From contig JAZTWM010000015.1 in the NCBI GenBank assembly GCA_045635825.1, forward strand, positions 6,786 through 70,785: DNA of 64,000 nt. The letters are read 5' to 3'. Shown in pieces: positions 9,984 to 21,166 of this stretch. The notes under the pieces are model-generated. The model was not told the DNA's origin, ran no database searches, and worked only from the letters and a program-made list of their open reading frames with translations. Origin of the DNA: Candidatus Enterousia sp. GTDB lineage: Bacteria > Pseudomonadota > Alphaproteobacteria > Rs-D84. Each line of letters opens with the position of its first letter. Position 1 is the first letter of the stretch. Both the position numbers and the translations under genes were made by a program.

Positions 9984-11183
9984 TTACAATGAAACCGCCT
10001 CGATATATTTCTGTGGTATATTGTTCAGCATTTCGTTTGTTGCACGTTGCATTGATTGACGGATTGGGTCTGCTGATAAATGCGCATAGATTTGCGTGGC
10101 GGCAATTGACTTGTGACCCAATGAACGGCCAATAATTTGCAGGCTAGAACCTTCCATTGCTTGATAACTGCCCATTGTATGGCGCAGGTCATGTATGCGC
10201 ATGTTTTCAATGTTGGCACGTTTCAATAACGATGCCCATGATGACTTGGGTTCCTCAAGATGTCCGCTTTTGCTGGTATCGCTTGGGAATAGCCACGGAC
10301 TGTCGCCCGCATCATTTCGCATCTGTATTAACAAATCCATTGCATGCGTTGTCAAAGGAATATTGACATCATCGCCGTTTTTAGTGTCTGCAAAACGTAC
10401 AAAGCCGTTTTCAAGGTCAATATCTGACCAGCGCAAGGCCAACATATTGCTGCGACGTTGTGCCAAAAACAGTGATAACAACACATAATTGCGAAATACG
10501 GTATTTGAATATTTCAGCGCATCAAGAAATCGCCGCAGCTCTTCCTGGGACAAATAGCGAACGCGGCTTTTTTCTTTGAATGGTTTTATGTTCTGTGCAG
10601 GATTTTCTAATCTGCGTGGATACCCCAATTCATATGCCTTGTTATACATGTGGCGCAGTAAACTAAGTGTACGGTTGGCGGTGTATAAACCACAATTGCG
10701 TTTTATCGAATTATGCAGCTGTGTAACCTCTTGCTGTGTTATGGTACGCATCTGGCGATTATGAAACGGCGCTAGATGTCTTTCAAATGTGATATTATTG
10801 TCATAAACCGTCTTAGGTTTTTTATACAGCTGCGAATGCTGGGGAAGATAAACATTCTTGTAATAGTGTCCCAAGGTCATATCGTTCAATGCGTCACGAC
10901 GTTCTGTTGCAGGGTCTTCACCATGTAACGACCGTTCTTTATATTCATGTGCACGCATACGGGCCTCGGCTATTTTTATCTGACCGACACGGGCGATTTT
11001 TACGCGACGTGGCATTCCTTGAAATTTAAGATACGCGAAGTATGTTTTTGCTCCTCCATAACTTACATGTACGCATAATCCATCCAATGACCCAGTATCA
11101 TAATATATGACTGTGCCTGTCTTTGGAACCGGCAATGCATCCAGTGTTTTATTTGTAAAGTTGATACGATTTGACTTACTCAT
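9984..11183 (-). CDS. int: Tyrosine site-specific integrase
   Basis: C-terminal catalytic region ...RIHDLRHTMGS... and ...IAATQIYAHL (R..H..R..Y). Adjacent to attR. Confidence 0.9.
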   Translation of the reverse strand: MSKSNRINFTNKTLDALPVPKTGTVIYYDTGSLDGLCVHVSYGGAKTYFAYLKFQGMPRRVKIARVGQIKIAEARMRAHEYKERSLHGEDPATERRDALNDMTLGHYYKNVYLPQHSQLYKKPKTVYDNNITFERHLAPFHNRQMRTITQQEVTQLHNSIKRNCGLYTANRTLSLLRHMYNKAYELGYPRRLENPAQNIKPFKEKSRVRYLSQEELRRFLDALKYSNTVFRNYVLLSLFLAQRRSNMLALRWSDIDLENGFVRFADTKNGDDVNIPLTTHAMDLLIQMRNDAGDSPWLFPSDTSKSGHLEEPKSSWASLLKRANIENMRIHDLRHTMGSYQAMEGSSLQIIGRSLGHKSIAATQIYAHLSADPIRQSMQRATNEMLNNIPQKYIEAVSL

Positions 11184-16194: not shown

Positions 16195-16425
16195 ATGACA
16201 CACAATGACGTATGGAATGCAATCGACAAATTCGCATCTTCTAAGAAAATGTCCTGTTCGGGATTGGCAAGATTCAGTGGTCTGGACCCAACAACATTTA
16301 ACAAAAGCAAACGCAGTTCAAAATATGGTCAGCCAAGATGGCCTTCAACAAACAGCATCGCAAAAATACTGGACGCGACACATTCAAATATAGATGAATT
16401 TATTAGATGTTTTTATCAGCAATAA
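16195..16425 (+). CDS. Small HTH DNA-binding protein (Cro/CI-like)
   Basis: 77 aa from MTHNDVW with an AAGGAGA RBS. HTH-like segment SCSGLARFSGLDPTTFNKSKR. Own hairpin terminator at 16437-16465. Confidence 0.55.
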   Translation: MTHNDVWNAIDKFASSKKMSCSGLARFSGLDPTTFNKSKRSSKYGQPRWPSTNSIAKILDATHSNIDEFIRCFYQQ

Positions 16426-16505
16426 CCTTTTACCCCATTTTACAATCCCCAAAAAAGGGGATTTTTTTATTGAAAAAATATATGGTGTTATATAGACTGA
16501 GAGAC

Positions 16506-18272
16506 ATGAAAAACTTTCCAAATTCTGTATTAGATTTTTATCTCAAAAATCTGTTCAAATATACCAAGGGATGGTCGCTGGTATATTTTATACTGTCGGT
16601 GTTTGATACCGCAGGTTTTAGTATAATCCCAGCGTATTTTATCAAGATGGCAATCGCAACATTGGAATCAAATCCAGTGCCAGATGCGATGGCAAATATT
16701 ATTCCAATCGCAATTGCTTATTTTATGGTGCGTGCTGCATTGGTGACCGGGGCGGTCATGCGGTGGACAGTTTTTGACAATTGTATCAAGTATAAATCTT
16801 ATAACAAGATATCCAGAGATTTATATGACTATGTCTTTCATCAAACCAGCAAGTATTATGCAGATTCAATGCCTGGGAAAATCAATTCGCAGATAGATGG
16901 GGTGGCAACGGGCTTCTATGAAACATTTAATATGATATTCGGCAGTGCCGCCGCAACATTAGGTGCATTTATTTTGGGCTTTGGTGGTTTATTTGAAATC
17001 GGGTGGCAATATGTTGTTGTTATATTGTTGGCGGTTTGCGGACGTGTTGTTTGGGGTGTATGGCGTGTACGTTATGCCCTGCGGGCATCAGCACAGACAT
17101 CTAAAATATCAAATGCATTGCATGGCAGATTATTGGATGCGTTATCTAACTTTATGGCGGTAAAATTATTTGCGGGGGCAAAATGGGAACAAAAATGCGC
17201 AGAACCGTATAGAAGCGAGTATGAAAAAACTGCACGTAACGGACACGCACAATCACGACTGTTCTGGGCACCAGGGAACTACATTATGGATGTATTTGGA
17301 ATGACTGCATTGATTTTATTGTGTGGTTATATGTACCAAACAGGCAAATCTTCGATTGCAGATATTTCATTTGCATTAAGTGTATTTTTAGGAATCAGCG
17401 GTTTATCATTCAGCCTGATTTTAGAAATAAAGATGTTCATTGAAAAATGGGGAAAGGCAGTTGGTTCATACACAGGACTGATTCAACCAATTGAAATAGA
17501 AGATATGCCAGATGCCAAGGACTTGGTTGTCAATGGTGCAAGGTTGGAAATCAGGGATTTAAGTTTTCAATATAATAAAGCATCTGTTTTAAAAAAATTA
17601 TCATTTTCGGTCGAACCGGGCGAACGTGTTGGAATTGTTGGTCTGTCGGGTGCTGGTAAAACCACATTGGTAAATCTGATTATGCGATTGTATGATCCAA
17701 CAGGTGGTGCAATCTATATTGATGGACAGGATATTAAAACAGTAACCCAGGAATCACTGCATAAAAGTATTGCATTTATCCCCCAGGATTCAACAATGTT
17801 TAACAGAACAATTGCTGAAAATATAAAATACGGACGAACAGACGCAACAAACAAGGAAGTTGCCAAGGCAGCACGCGATGCATCAGCAGATCAATTTATA
17901 AAATCTGCACCAAATAAATACGATACATATATTGGTGATCGTGGGATAAAACTGTCTGGCGGTCAAAGACAGAGAATCGCAATTGCACGTGCATTTTTGA
18001 AAGATGCACCAATCTTGATATTAGACGAAGCGACATCTGCATTGGATAGCGAGACAGAAAATACTATCCAGGAATCCTTTGCGAAATTATCCAAGGGACG
18101 CACCACCATTGTTATTGCACACAGACTGTCAACATTGCGGAATATGGATAGACTGATTGTTCTGGACAATGGCAAGATTGTAGAAAGTGGCAACCACAAA
18201 GAATTACTGCGTCAAGGTGGTATTTATGCCAAGTTGTGGAACATGCAGTCGGGCGGTTTCTTGAACGAATAA
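16506..18272 (+). CDS. ABC exporter, fused permease/ATPase
   Basis: Six-helix TM domain then GLSGAGKTTL, LSGGQRQRIAIARA, ILILDEATSALD. Start chosen after the upstream terminator. Confidence 0.85.
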   Translation: MKNFPNSVLDFYLKNLFKYTKGWSLVYFILSVFDTAGFSIIPAYFIKMAIATLESNPVPDAMANIIPIAIAYFMVRAALVTGAVMRWTVFDNCIKYKSYNKISRDLYDYVFHQTSKYYADSMPGKINSQIDGVATGFYETFNMIFGSAAATLGAFILGFGGLFEIGWQYVVVILLAVCGRVVWGVWRVRYALRASAQTSKISNALHGRLLDALSNFMAVKLFAGAKWEQKCAEPYRSEYEKTARNGHAQSRLFWAPGNYIMDVFGMTALILLCGYMYQTGKSSIADISFALSVFLGISGLSFSLILEIKMFIEKWGKAVGSYTGLIQPIEIEDMPDAKDLVVNGARLEIRDLSFQYNKASVLKKLSFSVEPGERVGIVGLSGAGKTTLVNLIMRLYDPTGGAIYIDGQDIKTVTQESLHKSIAFIPQDSTMFNRTIAENIKYGRTDATNKEVAKAARDASADQFIKSAPNKYDTYIGDRGIKLSGGQRQRIAIARAFLKDAPILILDEATSALDSETENTIQESFAKLSKGRTTIVIAHRLSTLRNMDRLIVLDNGKIVESGNHKELLRQGGIYAKLWNMQSGGFLNE

Positions 18273-18331
18273 AAAAATCCCCCGCAAGTACACAGGGGAC
18301 TGTGGGAAGAATAGATAAAAAACAGATTTCA

Positions 18332-18514
18332 CTAGCGCGTGAAACTGAGATGACCGTTTTCGTCATAGACATAAACAACATTACCACCACGACGAATGCT
18401 GACGGTTGTGCCGGTATAGCCTTGCATTTCACCAGTTTGTGTGAACTTTAAATGTCCACGTTCATCATATACATATATTACGTTCCCACGTTGGGTTACT
18501 GTTCCGATTGCCAT
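18332..18514 (-). CDS. 60-aa protein made of two YD-type repeats
   Basis: RGNVIYVYDERGHLKFTQ and RGGNVVYVYDENGHLSFTR. Own RBS (AAGGA), and hairpin terminators on both sides at 18280-18305 and 18578-18600. Confidence 0.45.
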   Translation of the reverse strand: MAIGTVTQRGNVIYVYDERGHLKFTQTGEMQGYTGTTVSIRRGGNVVYVYDENGHLSFTR

Positions 18515-18601
18515 ATTTTGTCCTTTTGGTTCTGTATAATTATTATGGCGGTAACTTATGCCATATTTGGTCCAAAAAAATCCCCCGTATTCGGGGGAAT
18601 G

Positions 18602-19111
18602 TTATTTACGCGAACGCGATTTTGTTTTGGTGGCACTGCGTCTTGGCTGAAGGCGTTTTGGTGAAGAATCAATCGTTTCCATGTCTTCAAACGCCACATC
18701 CCCATTTGCAACATCCATAATTTGCTTTACACGACTGCGTAATTTTGGGTGACGGTCTGCGTATTGTTTTATACCCACCAAGACAGCCGTTGTAATTAAC
18801 TTTTCCATATCACGTGAATCAATGTGTTCTGTTACCTGACCACGCACACCAGATAAAACAGTACGCATTGCTTCTTTGGCACGACGGATAAAGTGACGTC
18901 TGCGGTGTGCACGAACGATTTCATGTATCCACATCAATACCAACAATACCACTGCAGGCACAATCACACAAAACAAGAAGTAACGATACCAACTGTCACA
19001 AAATGGGGTTGAAAATATCGCATCGCATATATGTTGGAAATGCAATGCAGATACCGCCAGCATTTCATAAATGGCAACGGTGGTTAGACAGATTTTTGAT
19101 TTTAATAACAT
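18602..19111 (-). CDS. Hypothetical membrane protein (2 N-terminal TM helices plus basic helical tail)
   Basis: 169-aa ORF. Hydrophobic segments VAIYEMLAVSAL and YFLFCVIVPAVVLLVLMWI. Followed by a hairpin terminator. Confidence 0.5.
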   Translation of the reverse strand: MLLKSKICLTTVAIYEMLAVSALHFQHICDAIFSTPFCDSWYRYFLFCVIVPAVVLLVLMWIHEIVRAHRRRHFIRRAKEAMRTVLSGVRGQVTEHIDSRDMEKLITTAVLVGIKQYADRHPKLRSRVKQIMDVANGDVAFEDMETIDSSPKRLQPRRSATKTKSRSRK

Positions 19112-19194
19112 GGTACATCCTTTTTGCTGATAATCTTGGTAATAAACAGATTAACGCACATGGTACGCCATGTCATCAGGTATGAAATCCGCCT

Positions 19195-20295
19195 TTAACG
19201 AGATTTAGGCGAAGAGGCAGATATTACCACATCTTTACGATTACGACACATATCAATATACGTATTGTTTGCCGCCTTGAGAGCGGTATCTGTCCATTCA
19301 CGTTCACGTTGAACATCTGGCGTGGCAAGTTTGGCTGTATATGTATTGTCAATAATATGGTTGTGTAATTGGAACAACTTGACCGACATATCACAGGCAT
19401 CTTGTCCGGTTGTGATGCGTGGCGTAACATTCAACTGGGCATTCGCATCCAGATATGCAGTTGGACGACCACCCTTTTGATAAAAGATTCCGCCAACACC
19501 ATTTTCGGCATCCAGACTGTGATCCTGAACATATTTCACATTGTATGGTTCTGGTGACGGCAGGTTAAAACCACGATACATCGGTTGATATATTACTGTT
19601 TGTGTTTTGGTTGGTTCAAAAGAACGAACCACCGGTGTATGTAAGCGACCATTGCCACGAATTACTGTGCCTGGGCGTATATCTGTCAAATCCATAAATA
19701 TCATTTTATCACAATATGGGAATCCGACACGTCGTGCAACCAGACCATATTCAGATGCACTGGTAAATGTATAATCATTAACAATCAGTTGAAATACCGA
19801 TGGCATATGACGAAAAGTTTTCATACCAGGGCCAATGAAAGACAATCTGATTTTTTCATCTTCTTTGGGTTCGGTACGCTCGATAATTAACATTCTATCT
19901 TTTAGACCAACACGAGAAGCAATATGCATATGCGGATCATAAACATCAACTTGCTTGGATAAATATAGGTCGCCCAGCCAAAGACCGACACGCACTTTGT
20001 CAAACCAATCCAGCAATAACGATATTTCTGGGGCAGTCAGGCTGGCACCATCCATAATCTTGGTTATGATATCTTTGCATTGAGCCTCCATCAGACTGTA
20101 CCGGCTGTTACATTCTTCGCAGGCGGGGAACTTTAATGCCTGAAATGCAATACTGTCACGACCACTGGGCAAAATATTACCCATAAAACAGGGGCGTGAT
20201 TTTTTACCGGTCATCGCCATTAACCATTGTGGCAAAACGTGTTCCGCATTCTTGCCCTGGGGTTTATTTCCACAAAAAACACAAAATTGTGACAT
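19195..20295 (-). CDS. Protein with N-terminal HNH-like Zn-finger nuclease motif plus ~280-aa unknown domain
   Basis: C-x2-C (CVFCG) ... EHVLPQWL ... N ... C-x2-C-N (ACEECN) arrangement typical of HNH/His-Me finger nucleases. No other recognisable motif. Confidence 0.5.
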   Translation of the reverse strand: MSQFCVFCGNKPQGKNAEHVLPQWLMAMTGKKSRPCFMGNILPSGRDSIAFQALKFPACEECNSRYSLMEAQCKDIITKIMDGASLTAPEISLLLDWFDKVRVGLWLGDLYLSKQVDVYDPHMHIASRVGLKDRMLIIERTEPKEDEKIRLSFIGPGMKTFRHMPSVFQLIVNDYTFTSASEYGLVARRVGFPYCDKMIFMDLTDIRPGTVIRGNGRLHTPVVRSFEPTKTQTVIYQPMYRGFNLPSPEPYNVKYVQDHSLDAENGVGGIFYQKGGRPTAYLDANAQLNVTPRITTGQDACDMSVKLFQLHNHIIDNTYTAKLATPDVQREREWTDTALKAANNTYIDMCRNRKDVVISASSPKSR

Positions 20296-20401
20296 AGTTA
20301 TCCTTTATATCTCCCATATATTATAACTTGACAAATAAAATATTCCACAAAAAAATTACCCCCATTGTTTTGGGGGCTATTTTTGTCATAAACGCATGTG
20401 T

Positions 20402-21166
20402 TTATTCATCGCCATCGGGTGTTTCATCTGTATTTTCTGGGTTAGATTCAACCGCACGTGCAACAGTTTCTATCTGTAACAACTGATTTTCCAATGCGGT
20501 ACGTTCCGATGACTTGTATCCCGTTTCTGCATCTGTACCAGATGCATCACCTGTTTCCTTGCCGTCTTTGACAGACTGTTTAACATCATTGATTGCAGGA
20601 TTTATTAGATTCTTGTAGATTTCCATTGCCTGGTGTGTGCCGGCCATATCACGTGCCAACAACTTATTTTCAGGTCCCGGGAAGAACCAATCATCCAATT
20701 TTACCGCAGTTACCTGCATCACAGGTCTGGTGCGTGACTGGGCCAGCCATTTTGGCAAATGTGGCACATCCGAATAATACCACAATGCACCCCAATAGAA
20801 AATACCCATAACAACAACACCACGAATAATACCGAAGATTACACCCAATGTTTTGTCAGTGACATTCATAATGCTGGCCTGAATCTTGTCACGCAGTTTT
20901 TGATTCAGGAAACCGACCAATAACAAGATTGCAAAAAATACAATAAAATATGATGCAACCAACGTACCAACCGTCGATTCAGTCAAATCAAACCATGACT
21001 GCAATAGACCATCCAGCCATGGCGATACAAAACGGGCAGAAATCGCCGCAACGACCCATGATAGCGTAGCAATTGTTTCGTACACGCCACCACGAATTGT
21101 AGCCCAAATTGTGGATGCCAATATGACACCCACATAAATATAATCTAATGCTGTTAAATCAAACAT
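20402..21166 (-). CDS. cvpA: CvpA-family membrane protein with extended acidic C-terminus
   Basis: N-terminal 4-TM CvpA-like region (DYIYVGVILASTIWATIRGG...). Hairpin terminator at 20345-20372. Confidence 0.7.
   Translation of the reverse strand: MFDLTALDYIYVGVILASTIWATIRGGVYETIATLSWVVAAISARFVSPWLDGLLQSWFDLTESTVGTLVASYFIVFFAILLLVGFLNQKLRDKIQASIMNVTDKTLGVIFGIIRGVVVMGIFYWGALWYYSDVPHLPKWLAQSRTRPVMQVTAVKLDDWFFPGPENKLLARDMAGTHQAMEIYKNLINPAINDVKQSVKDGKETGDASGTDAETGYKSSERTALENQLLQIETVARAVESNPENTDETPDGDE

Follow-up and report, generated by a model that had tools for sequence, protein, structure and literature searches.

A 366-residue protein encoded downstream of cvpA in a "Candidatus Enterousia" genome is the product of a stand-alone, horizontally exchanged single-gene cassette that has no fixed partner. 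The gene, here called P366 (19195..20295, minus strand), was found in a 64,000-nt stretch of assembly GCA_045635825.1 (contig JAZTWM010000015.1, positions 6,786 to 70,785), which is referred to throughout as the window. Two further minus-strand genes follow it: p169 (18602..19111), which was recognized from the open reading frame (ORF) list, homologs, and hydropathy as encoding a 169-residue membrane protein, and p60 (18332..18514), an independent small gene whose 60-residue product consists of two YD-like beta-hairpin repeats. The three ORFs lie exactly where an earlier note on this DNA had placed them, with cvpA (20402-21166) flanking the P366 side and a convergent ABC exporter gene (16407-18272) flanking the p60 side. 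The note had joined them into one candidate defense or toxin module. Instead, the interval is best read as a variable spot downstream of cvpA that houses three independent things, with P366 acting as a stand-alone nuclease directed against mobile elements. For this reading as a whole, which includes a putative nuclease activity, a presumed role for the C-terminal domain, and a presumed defensive function, we put the chances at about even.

Exchange of P366 as a Single-Gene Cassette

Mapping of the window's proteins used 80 species-level genomes with a P366 homolog, most of them from "Candidatus Enterousia" and related gut and rumen metagenome-assembled genomes (MAGs). The order seen in the window, cvpA-P366-p169, occurs at 15 loci and the order cvpA-p169-P366 at 14. 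At 4 loci P366 is inverted and sits between p169 and cvpA, at 4 others it is 0.8-2.6 kb off the cvpA/p169 pair, and at more than 30 it has neither gene nearby; there its neighbors encode a Slam-like barrel and GalE, ribosomal protein S4, a U32 peptidase, GlyRS, and others. With clades defined at >=45% identity, every P366 clade uses several sites, one site can hold deeply diverged clades, and two alleles occupy two sites within one MAG. Divergence of P366 correlates only loosely with that of cvpA (rho 0.67), and at 75-85% cvpA identity the identity of P366 spans 34% to 93%. Synonymous divergence (dS) separates the genes more sharply. Between loci L048 and L051, whose P366 proteins are 99% identical, dS is 0.039 for P366, 0.905 for cvpA, and 1.447 for p169; between L005 and L007, it is 0.26 for P366 and ∼1.0 for both cvpA and p169. 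Because the dS of P366 is discordant with that of its flanking genes, the gene has been exchanged horizontally between species. Selection on P366 is purifying (ratio of nonsynonymous to synonymous rates, omega, 0.04-0.16), and its copies are intact in essentially all surveyed genomes.

The size of the exchanged unit was read from a sliding comparison of L048 with L051. DNA identity of 95-100% is limited to ∼1.1 kb, which holds a promoter (TTGACA-17 nt-TATAT), the ORF, and the gene's own terminator. The cassette has sharp boundaries: identity falls to 30-78% in the flanks, and unrelated genes lie downstream, which means that it did not enter a homologous empty site. No recombinase was seen near P366 in the Enterousia loci. 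Occupancy of the cvpA-p169 junction was seen to vary, but only between distant species, and a lookup of the exact cvpA protein of the window, aimed at empty sites among strains, gave no record. P366 is exchanged between species as an autonomous unit of this kind. In L051, the start of a tRNA-Thr gene (TGT; 11058-11133) on the opposite strand is no more than ∼10 nt from the cassette's terminator, which hints that at least some insertions lie next to tRNA genes.

A cassette of this form could also be selfish, which is the main rival to a defensive role. A free-standing homing-type endonuclease gene would cut cassette-free genomes near preferred intergenic sites, such as the one downstream of cvpA, would be copied in during repair, and would persist by spreading and not by benefit to the host. 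Much of the mobility evidence fits such a gene: P366 stands alone with a promoter and a terminator of its own, it is inserted between conserved genes in either orientation, different alleles reuse the same sites, the dS discordance shows gene-specific horizontal transfer, and no partner gene accompanies it. The HNH families that P366 weakly matches are also classified in His-Me Group 1 together with the Mob homing endonucleases of phage T4 (PMC5714182). However, P366 was absent from 50,697 phage records and was found at only 5 loci among 2.9 million viral contigs, and it was not found in introns or inteins. Its flanks show no co-conversion gradient, and the unrelated downstream genes of L048 and L051 again stand against homing. 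In contrast to the decay typical of homing genes, P366 has intact copies, a strongly conserved C-terminal domain of ∼270 residues, and uniformly low omega values, and it is frequent in defense islands outside the lineage. Taken together, we consider a homing gene unlikely.

A dedicated partner was not apparent either. No neighbor family recurs beside P366 in the 80 genomic and 85 environmental or viral loci, and these loci lack the conserved adjacent small partner that marks a toxin-antitoxin pair. Some neighbors are similar in size to P366 (clusters c82, c86, c129, c138, and c89) and were considered as hidden paralogs. None matches the family hidden Markov model (HMM) at E<=1, and representatives resemble GalE or other proteins without relation to P366. 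A second ORF of 364 residues in L101 was likewise rejected as a paralog. Two orphan clusters without Pfam or PADLOC matches do appear repeatedly: c39 (∼390-408 aa) recurs near P366 in L002, L013, L017, L022, L032, and L071, and c41 (∼254-280 aa) lies downstream of it in L012-L016 and L019. Both may be further mobile or variable cargo at the same hotspots.

Independent Histories of p169 and p60

The stable syntenic core of this region in gut Alphaproteobacteria, meaning "Candidatus Enterousia" and its relatives, is Grx-cvpA-p169, and cvpA and p169 are linked throughout. Because p169 remains beside cvpA wherever P366 is, it belongs to the cvpA cluster, not with P366, and merely flanks the insertion point. 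All 111 homologs of p169 come from gut Alphaproteobacteria. The earlier view that the three genes have no functional link to their neighbors was therefore wrong for p169, which is syntenic with cvpA across the lineage. The protein had also been described as having two N-terminal transmembrane helices; hydropathy instead shows a single strong hydrophobic segment at ∼43-66 and a marginal one at ∼7-25. Sequence divergence indicates that p169 is itself hypervariable. It is the most diverged gene of the neighborhood when the window is compared with contig L001 (7185-7694), at 92% amino acid identity against 96-100% for its neighbors, with the differences concentrated in its hydrophobic segment and basic tail. 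For the pair L048 and L051, identity is 47% for p169 and 91% for cvpA. One contig labeled Bacteroides fragilis (L025, CAVGNU010000013.1) has the gut-alphaproteobacterial synteny Grx-cvpA-p169-P366 and is probably mis-binned.

A functional unit of P366 and p169 might nonetheless exist in this lineage, for example a nuclease or sensor with a membrane effector or immunity partner, with p60 extraneous to it. At 37 of the 80 loci, either p169 or cvpA is within one gene of P366, and the window has 83 nt between P366 and p169, which use a common terminator (18598-18581). The terminator scan found only a weak hairpin without a T-run in the gap (19170-19152). Because no strong terminator separates them, P366 and p169 probably share one transcript in the window. 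Against such a unit, gene order and orientation vary, with P366 on the opposite strand between p169 and cvpA in four loci, and p169 keeps beside cvpA when P366 is 0.8-2.6 kb off. P366 occurs without p169 in more than 30 Enterousia-type loci and in all non-Enterousia loci. The histories of the two genes are discordant, with 99% identity for P366 and 47% for p169 in the same genome pair, and p169 homologs are confined to the lineage whereas P366 is found across phyla. A two-gene unit is thus hard to reconcile with the data, and we think it improbable.

The third gene, p60, is smaller and more readily separated. As the earlier note had recognized, its product is built from two repeats of ∼19 residues, RGNVIYVYDERGHLKFTQTG and RGGNVVYVYDENGHLSFTR. 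Pairwise alignment with L001 shows the gene and its own terminator as a clean indel of ∼298 bp (18304..18601, minus strand): L001 has no p60, though its P366 protein is 99% identical to that of the window, and the cassette is kept in two near-identical contigs (L091 and L092). Two similar terminator copies of a repeat family termed D1 bracket the p60 cassette. They are 303 nt apart, a spacing that fits the length of the indel. A 15-nt duplication, D5 (GGAC[A/C]AAATATGGCA; 18509-18523 and 18559-18573), is a copy of the p60 ribosome-binding site and start. The extra copy lies directly after the p169 terminator, 50 nt upstream of the p60 start, and codes for Met-Ala-stop only; it looks like the footprint of a cassette insertion or duplication. 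We read p60 and its terminator as a separate small cassette that is gained or lost between strains.

The p60 family is small, with 21 homologs of 60-75 aa. Three of the 21 have a precomputed match to the RHS_repeat family (PF05593), and the window p60 has no RHS_repeat match at E<=10. Like RHS/YD-repeat proteins (PF05593), p60 bears the signature Y-x-Y-D-x-x-G-x-L, and one homolog was named a YD repeat-containing protein by its source. Unlike them, it has only two repeats in 60 residues, lacks a shell, toxin, or secretion domain, and falls below the Pfam threshold. A distant relative of 64 aa in L090 (5001-6150) is followed after a 1-nt gap by an unannotated gene for a protein of 317 aa, and the two may form a two-gene unit. 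Their surroundings resemble a defense island, with GmrSD_N, SIR2, MazE/Fic, RlaP, and a weak HNH_5 protein. Neither the 317-aa protein nor the HNH_5 protein is related to P366 by hhalign, and both were rejected as relatives.

These observations bear on the original proposal of a three-gene defense or toxin module composed of a nuclease, a membrane protein, and a small YD-repeat partner. The genes do neighbor one another on the same strand, both in the window and in a further two contigs nearly identical to it, and a distant p60 relative does occur in a defense island elsewhere. That relative, however, pairs with the 317-aa protein that is unrelated to P366. In addition, p60 is missing from the strain with the 99%-identical P366, only 4 of the 80 genomes have a p60 homolog near P366, at distances of 0.8-6 kb, and p169 follows cvpA, not P366. 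P366 itself is found in at least five arrangements and alone elsewhere, with no partner in the 85 environmental or viral loci. Gene neighborhoods show that the three genes are not a conserved unit; the trio does recur outside the window, but only in close relatives, via shared synteny. A common module is accordingly the least probable explanation that we considered, to the point of being scarcely credible.

A Likely HNH-Like Core and a Conserved C-Terminal Domain

HMM searches with P366, p169, and p60 gave no significant match in Pfam, PADLOC, NCBIfam, or PHROGs, and PADLOC v2.0.0 HMMs gave zero matches at E<=10. A search of the literature by accession and locus tag gave no papers on P366. Relatives are nevertheless numerous in sequence collections. 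The 90%-identity database holds 225 matches, all unnamed, and at 50% identity the family has 1,921 representatives at E<=1e-3 and 574 at E<=1e-30, with conservation over the full length. Among species genomes P366 is rare, with 125 confirmed loci in 185,579, and is spread across phyla.

The protein is divided into an N-terminal domain of residues 1-92 (20020..20295, minus strand), with a zinc-knuckle His-Me/HNH_5-like core, and ∼270 C-terminal residues (19195..20019, minus strand) that make up a conserved domain without a recognizable fold. The motif CVFCG...AEHVLPQWL...ACEECN, which had first suggested a nuclease, is present and is not a chance pattern: C5, C8, E18, H19, C59, C62, and N63 are invariant or nearly so in 43 homologs down to 32% identity, and E70 is also invariant. 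The layout of the domain is C5xxC8, a strand at 17-19, an omega-loop of residues 20-54, a strand at 55-57, C59xxC62-N63, and a helix at 60-81 that includes E70. The positions of C5xxC8 and C59xxC62 match those of a treble-clef zinc knuckle, and the ∼35 residues in between would form an enlarged omega-loop. In His-Me nucleases, the first beta-strand ends C-terminally in a nearly invariant His, often with D, E, or H before it (PMC5714182). H19 closes strand 17-19 according to DSSP applied to a model with a predicted local distance difference test (pLDDT) score of 92, and the E18-H19 pair is invariant in the 43 homologs. N63, also invariant, lies in the first turn of helix 60-81 of the model, and S67 (+4, consensus) and E70 (+7, invariant) share its helical face. 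The published helix criterion gives the +4 or +8 position (PMC5714182), and the invariant residue of P366 sits at +7. From this arrangement H19 is predicted to be the general base and N63, aided by E18 and E70, a metal ligand, while the four Cys residues would hold a structural zinc.

Sequence searches lend this assignment independent but weak evidence. Isolated N-domains of the P366 family matched Pfam HNH_5 (PF14279) in 27 of 27 cases, with a best E of 3e-5, and three members also matched the HNH model, but these HNH_5 matches are sub-threshold. The isolated N-domain of the window P366 scored 15.9 bits (E 0.013) over the first half of the motif only, below the gathering threshold of 27.5 bits, and the full-length protein did not match HNH_5. 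When the N-domain profile was compared with PDB sequences, the sole match was the HNH endonuclease 4H9D (E 0.25), with both motif halves colinear. The earlier suggestion of an HNH or His-Me affinity is therefore upheld weakly, through the consistent HNH_5 signal and the colinear 4H9D alignment, and stops short of the Pfam threshold. We conclude that the N-domain is likely a divergent HNH_5-like nuclease core that lies below formal family thresholds.

The C-terminal domain has no such guide. Its invariant residues are W97, D99, K100, R102, G104, P121, R128, D133, R134, G191, P193, P221, Q237, G266, and G268, many of them charged (D99, K100, R102, R128, D133, and R134), and neither a confident full-length model nor profiles found a counterpart among solved structures in the PDB. 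We propose that this domain may recognize a target or trigger, for example a component of a phage or nucleic acid that is foreign or modified, and that recognition would control or direct cleavage by the HNH core. This logic would be comparable to that of single-polypeptide type IV restriction nucleases or Abi nucleases. An observation of a different kind comes from Alkalilimnicola ehrlichii (L082, 10001-12609), where diverged P366 paralogs of 366 and 331 aa stand in tandem with a 128-aa ORF on the opposite strand between them.

P366 among Mobile Elements and Defense Genes

Outside the lineage, P366 keeps different company. In Pseudomonas moraviensis (L003), it stands between a type VI retron reverse transcriptase (1.4e-73) and the Shedu protein SduA (1.6e-150), with AbiV and AbiTii nearby. 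It adjoins PDC-S51 inside an integrase island in L098 and PDC-S15/FRG in Neptuniibacter (L079), is close to PDC-S31/DUF2971, Fic, and HicB in Marinomonas (L084), and is near IS110 and an AriA/NsnB-like ATPase in L099. A Vibrio plasmid (L087) has it in a region that resembles an integrative and conjugative element (ICE), where an Abi gene and IS3 accompany it. On Legionella plasmids (L088), the P366 gene is cut short by the insertion sequence (IS) element IS256. Plasmid matches often span residues ∼7-199 only. A metagenome scan seeded with the non-Enterousia P366 clade added 80 further loci. When the 150 nearest neighbors of P366 were pooled, they included five integrases, PD-T4-6, mad6, BovA, PDC-S15, a type VI retron, Shedu, a DpnII/MboI restriction-modification pair, and prophage genes. 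P366 thus stands beside known or candidate defense genes in at least five independent non-Enterousia loci. This association is given as raw counts and is suggestive, not yet a statistical one. The defense role once proposed for the three genes is plausible for P366 alone, on the strength of this mobile and defense context, and not for the set.

One environmental subclade has an additional feature. A protein of ∼515-750 aa is encoded upstream of P366 in L162 (5799-7343), L173 (5676-7919), L178 (5791-7938), and L180 (5731-7938), directly so in L173, L178, and L180 and one ORF further in L162. This upstream protein, ∼715 aa in the comparison of the four loci with PDB sequences, had no relative there. 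It could be a subclade-specific partner of P366.

Several observations weigh against a defense nuclease and should be considered together. The association with defense genes is suggestive and not statistical. In Enterousia genomes, the window included, the neighbors of P366 are housekeeping or orphan genes without PADLOC matches, and several non-Enterousia copies also lie among ordinary genes. No PADLOC model matches P366, and conservation does not extend to the middle Asn of the classic H-N-H motif. The presence of P366 in dozens of species, with divergence that correlates with that of cvpA, fits a lineage-retained gene too. Lastly, we read the proximity to cvpA or p169 in 37 of 80 loci as a hotspot, and a functional link within the lineage could also account for it.

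In another explanation, gut Alphaproteobacteria have retained P366 as a zinc protein without nuclease activity or as an enzyme of housekeeping or repair; its Cys4 site would be purely structural, and copies on mobile elements would be incidental. Its place among housekeeping genes in dozens of Enterousia-type species, its correlated divergence with cvpA, its purifying selection, and the sub-threshold nature of the HNH evidence are all compatible with such a protein. They are opposed by the variable position and strand of the gene, the two alleles in some genomes, recent exchange between species, and the rarity of the family overall. P366 is also carried on plasmids and ICE-like elements and has been disrupted by an IS element, and its invariant E18, H19, and N63 fall at exactly the His-Me catalytic positions. 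A housekeeping function has, in our estimation, a small chance of being correct, and a stand-alone defense nuclease is the reading that we retain.

Terminators and Repeats in the Window

The earlier note had described every gene of the trio as delimited by a hairpin terminator. Three hairpins do exist, but P366 and p169 are separated only by the weak one described above. The first (20358..20377, minus strand) is the intrinsic terminator of cvpA, lies between cvpA and P366, and has a 7-bp stem with 5 GC pairs and a T-run. The second (18581..18598, minus strand) follows p169 and is a member of repeat family D1, and the third (18276..18301, minus strand) follows p60 just beyond the end of the convergent ABC exporter gene (18272). 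All three are copies of one ∼19-nt repeat family (AAAAAAATCCCCCG...) at 18270-18288, 18573-18591, and 20348-20366. Intrinsic-terminator-like sites are enriched in the region, with 11 found and 2.1 expected. A weak candidate promoter for P366 (TTGTGG, 19 nt, TATAAT; ∼20350-20320) was read by eye only, was unreported by the minus-strand consensus scan, and is not counted as a part. No Rfam families were found in the window between 14000 and 24000, and the tRNA closest to the locus is about 9 kb off. Extra copies of P366, p169, or p60 were not found elsewhere in the window, and the Imm_superinfect gene of contig L091 is not at the matching place.

Relation to Known Systems and Implications

The closest relatives in design are the HNH nucleases of His-Me Group 1 (HNH_5, PF14279; HNH, PF01844), such as Geobacter Gmet_0936 (4H9D), the phage GVE2 HNH protein (5H0O), and the HNH domain of ZRANB3 (5MKW). 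P366 resembles them in the layout CxxC...[DE]H-x-x-P...P-A-C-x-x-C-N, in the treble-clef zinc knuckle, in the His that ends the first strand, and in the Asn of the first helix turn, and all of its weak matches point to this group. It departs from them in an omega-loop insertion of ∼35 residues that separates the His from the helix and includes one more helix and a hairpin, in the middle Asn that is not conserved, in scores below the Pfam threshold, and in the fusion to a conserved domain of ∼270 residues. Jablonska et al. (2017) include all of the families weakly matched by P366 in Group 1, list McrA there as well, and also list an unannotated, HNH_5-only Group 8 without further comment (PMC5714182).

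Three kinds of known genes offer a comparison at the level of the whole system. Like McrA-like enzymes, P366 is a solitary gene with an HNH core and a separate presumed recognition domain and is accessory cargo of islands and mobile elements. Unlike them, it has its HNH core at the N-terminus, and no SRA, PUA-like, or winged-helix reader was recognized in its second domain. The type IV McrA-like class consists of single-polypeptide HNH restriction or defense nucleases that have no cognate methylase. Free-standing HNH homing genes, exemplified by phage T4 mobA-E, share with P366 a promoter-ORF-terminator cassette placed between conserved genes in either orientation and a spread of the gene only, whereas P366 is bacterial and chromosomal, essentially absent from phages, free of flank co-conversion, equipped with a large conserved accessory domain, and under sustained purifying selection. 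The PADLOC PDC-S candidate families are likewise solitary genes, and P366 is found as they are beside Shedu, retrons, PDC-S15, PDC-S31, PDC-S51, integrases, and IS elements. In contrast to those families, P366 matches no PADLOC v2.0.0 model, and its main host lineage has it among housekeeping genes and not in recognizable defense islands.

The P366 family is unannotated in every library that was tried. An HNH core fused to an unassigned domain in variable or defense regions is a familiar design; the gene-sized exchange of the cassette and the unmatched fold are unusual. A bolder proposal is that P366 founds an uncatalogued family of single-gene immune nucleases, in which a divergent HNH core would be governed by a sensor domain of a fold not in solved structures, and which would spread as a bare ∼1.1-kb promoter-ORF-terminator cassette without a recombinase, its own nuclease perhaps driving its mobility. 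We regard this proposal as possible but rather doubtful.

There is a caution in how the locus was first read. With one genome to go by, gene adjacency and terminators pointed to a system of three genes; comparative genomics dissolves it. What is left is a family found widely in environmental bacteria, and almost throughout one uncultured and little-studied gut genus. Its gene-sized, sharp-edged exchange with no recombinase nearby raises the questions of how such minimal cassettes move and whether the encoded nuclease promotes its own transfer. If P366 is a working defense nuclease, it would add a compact single-gene system with an unrecognized sensor or regulatory fold.

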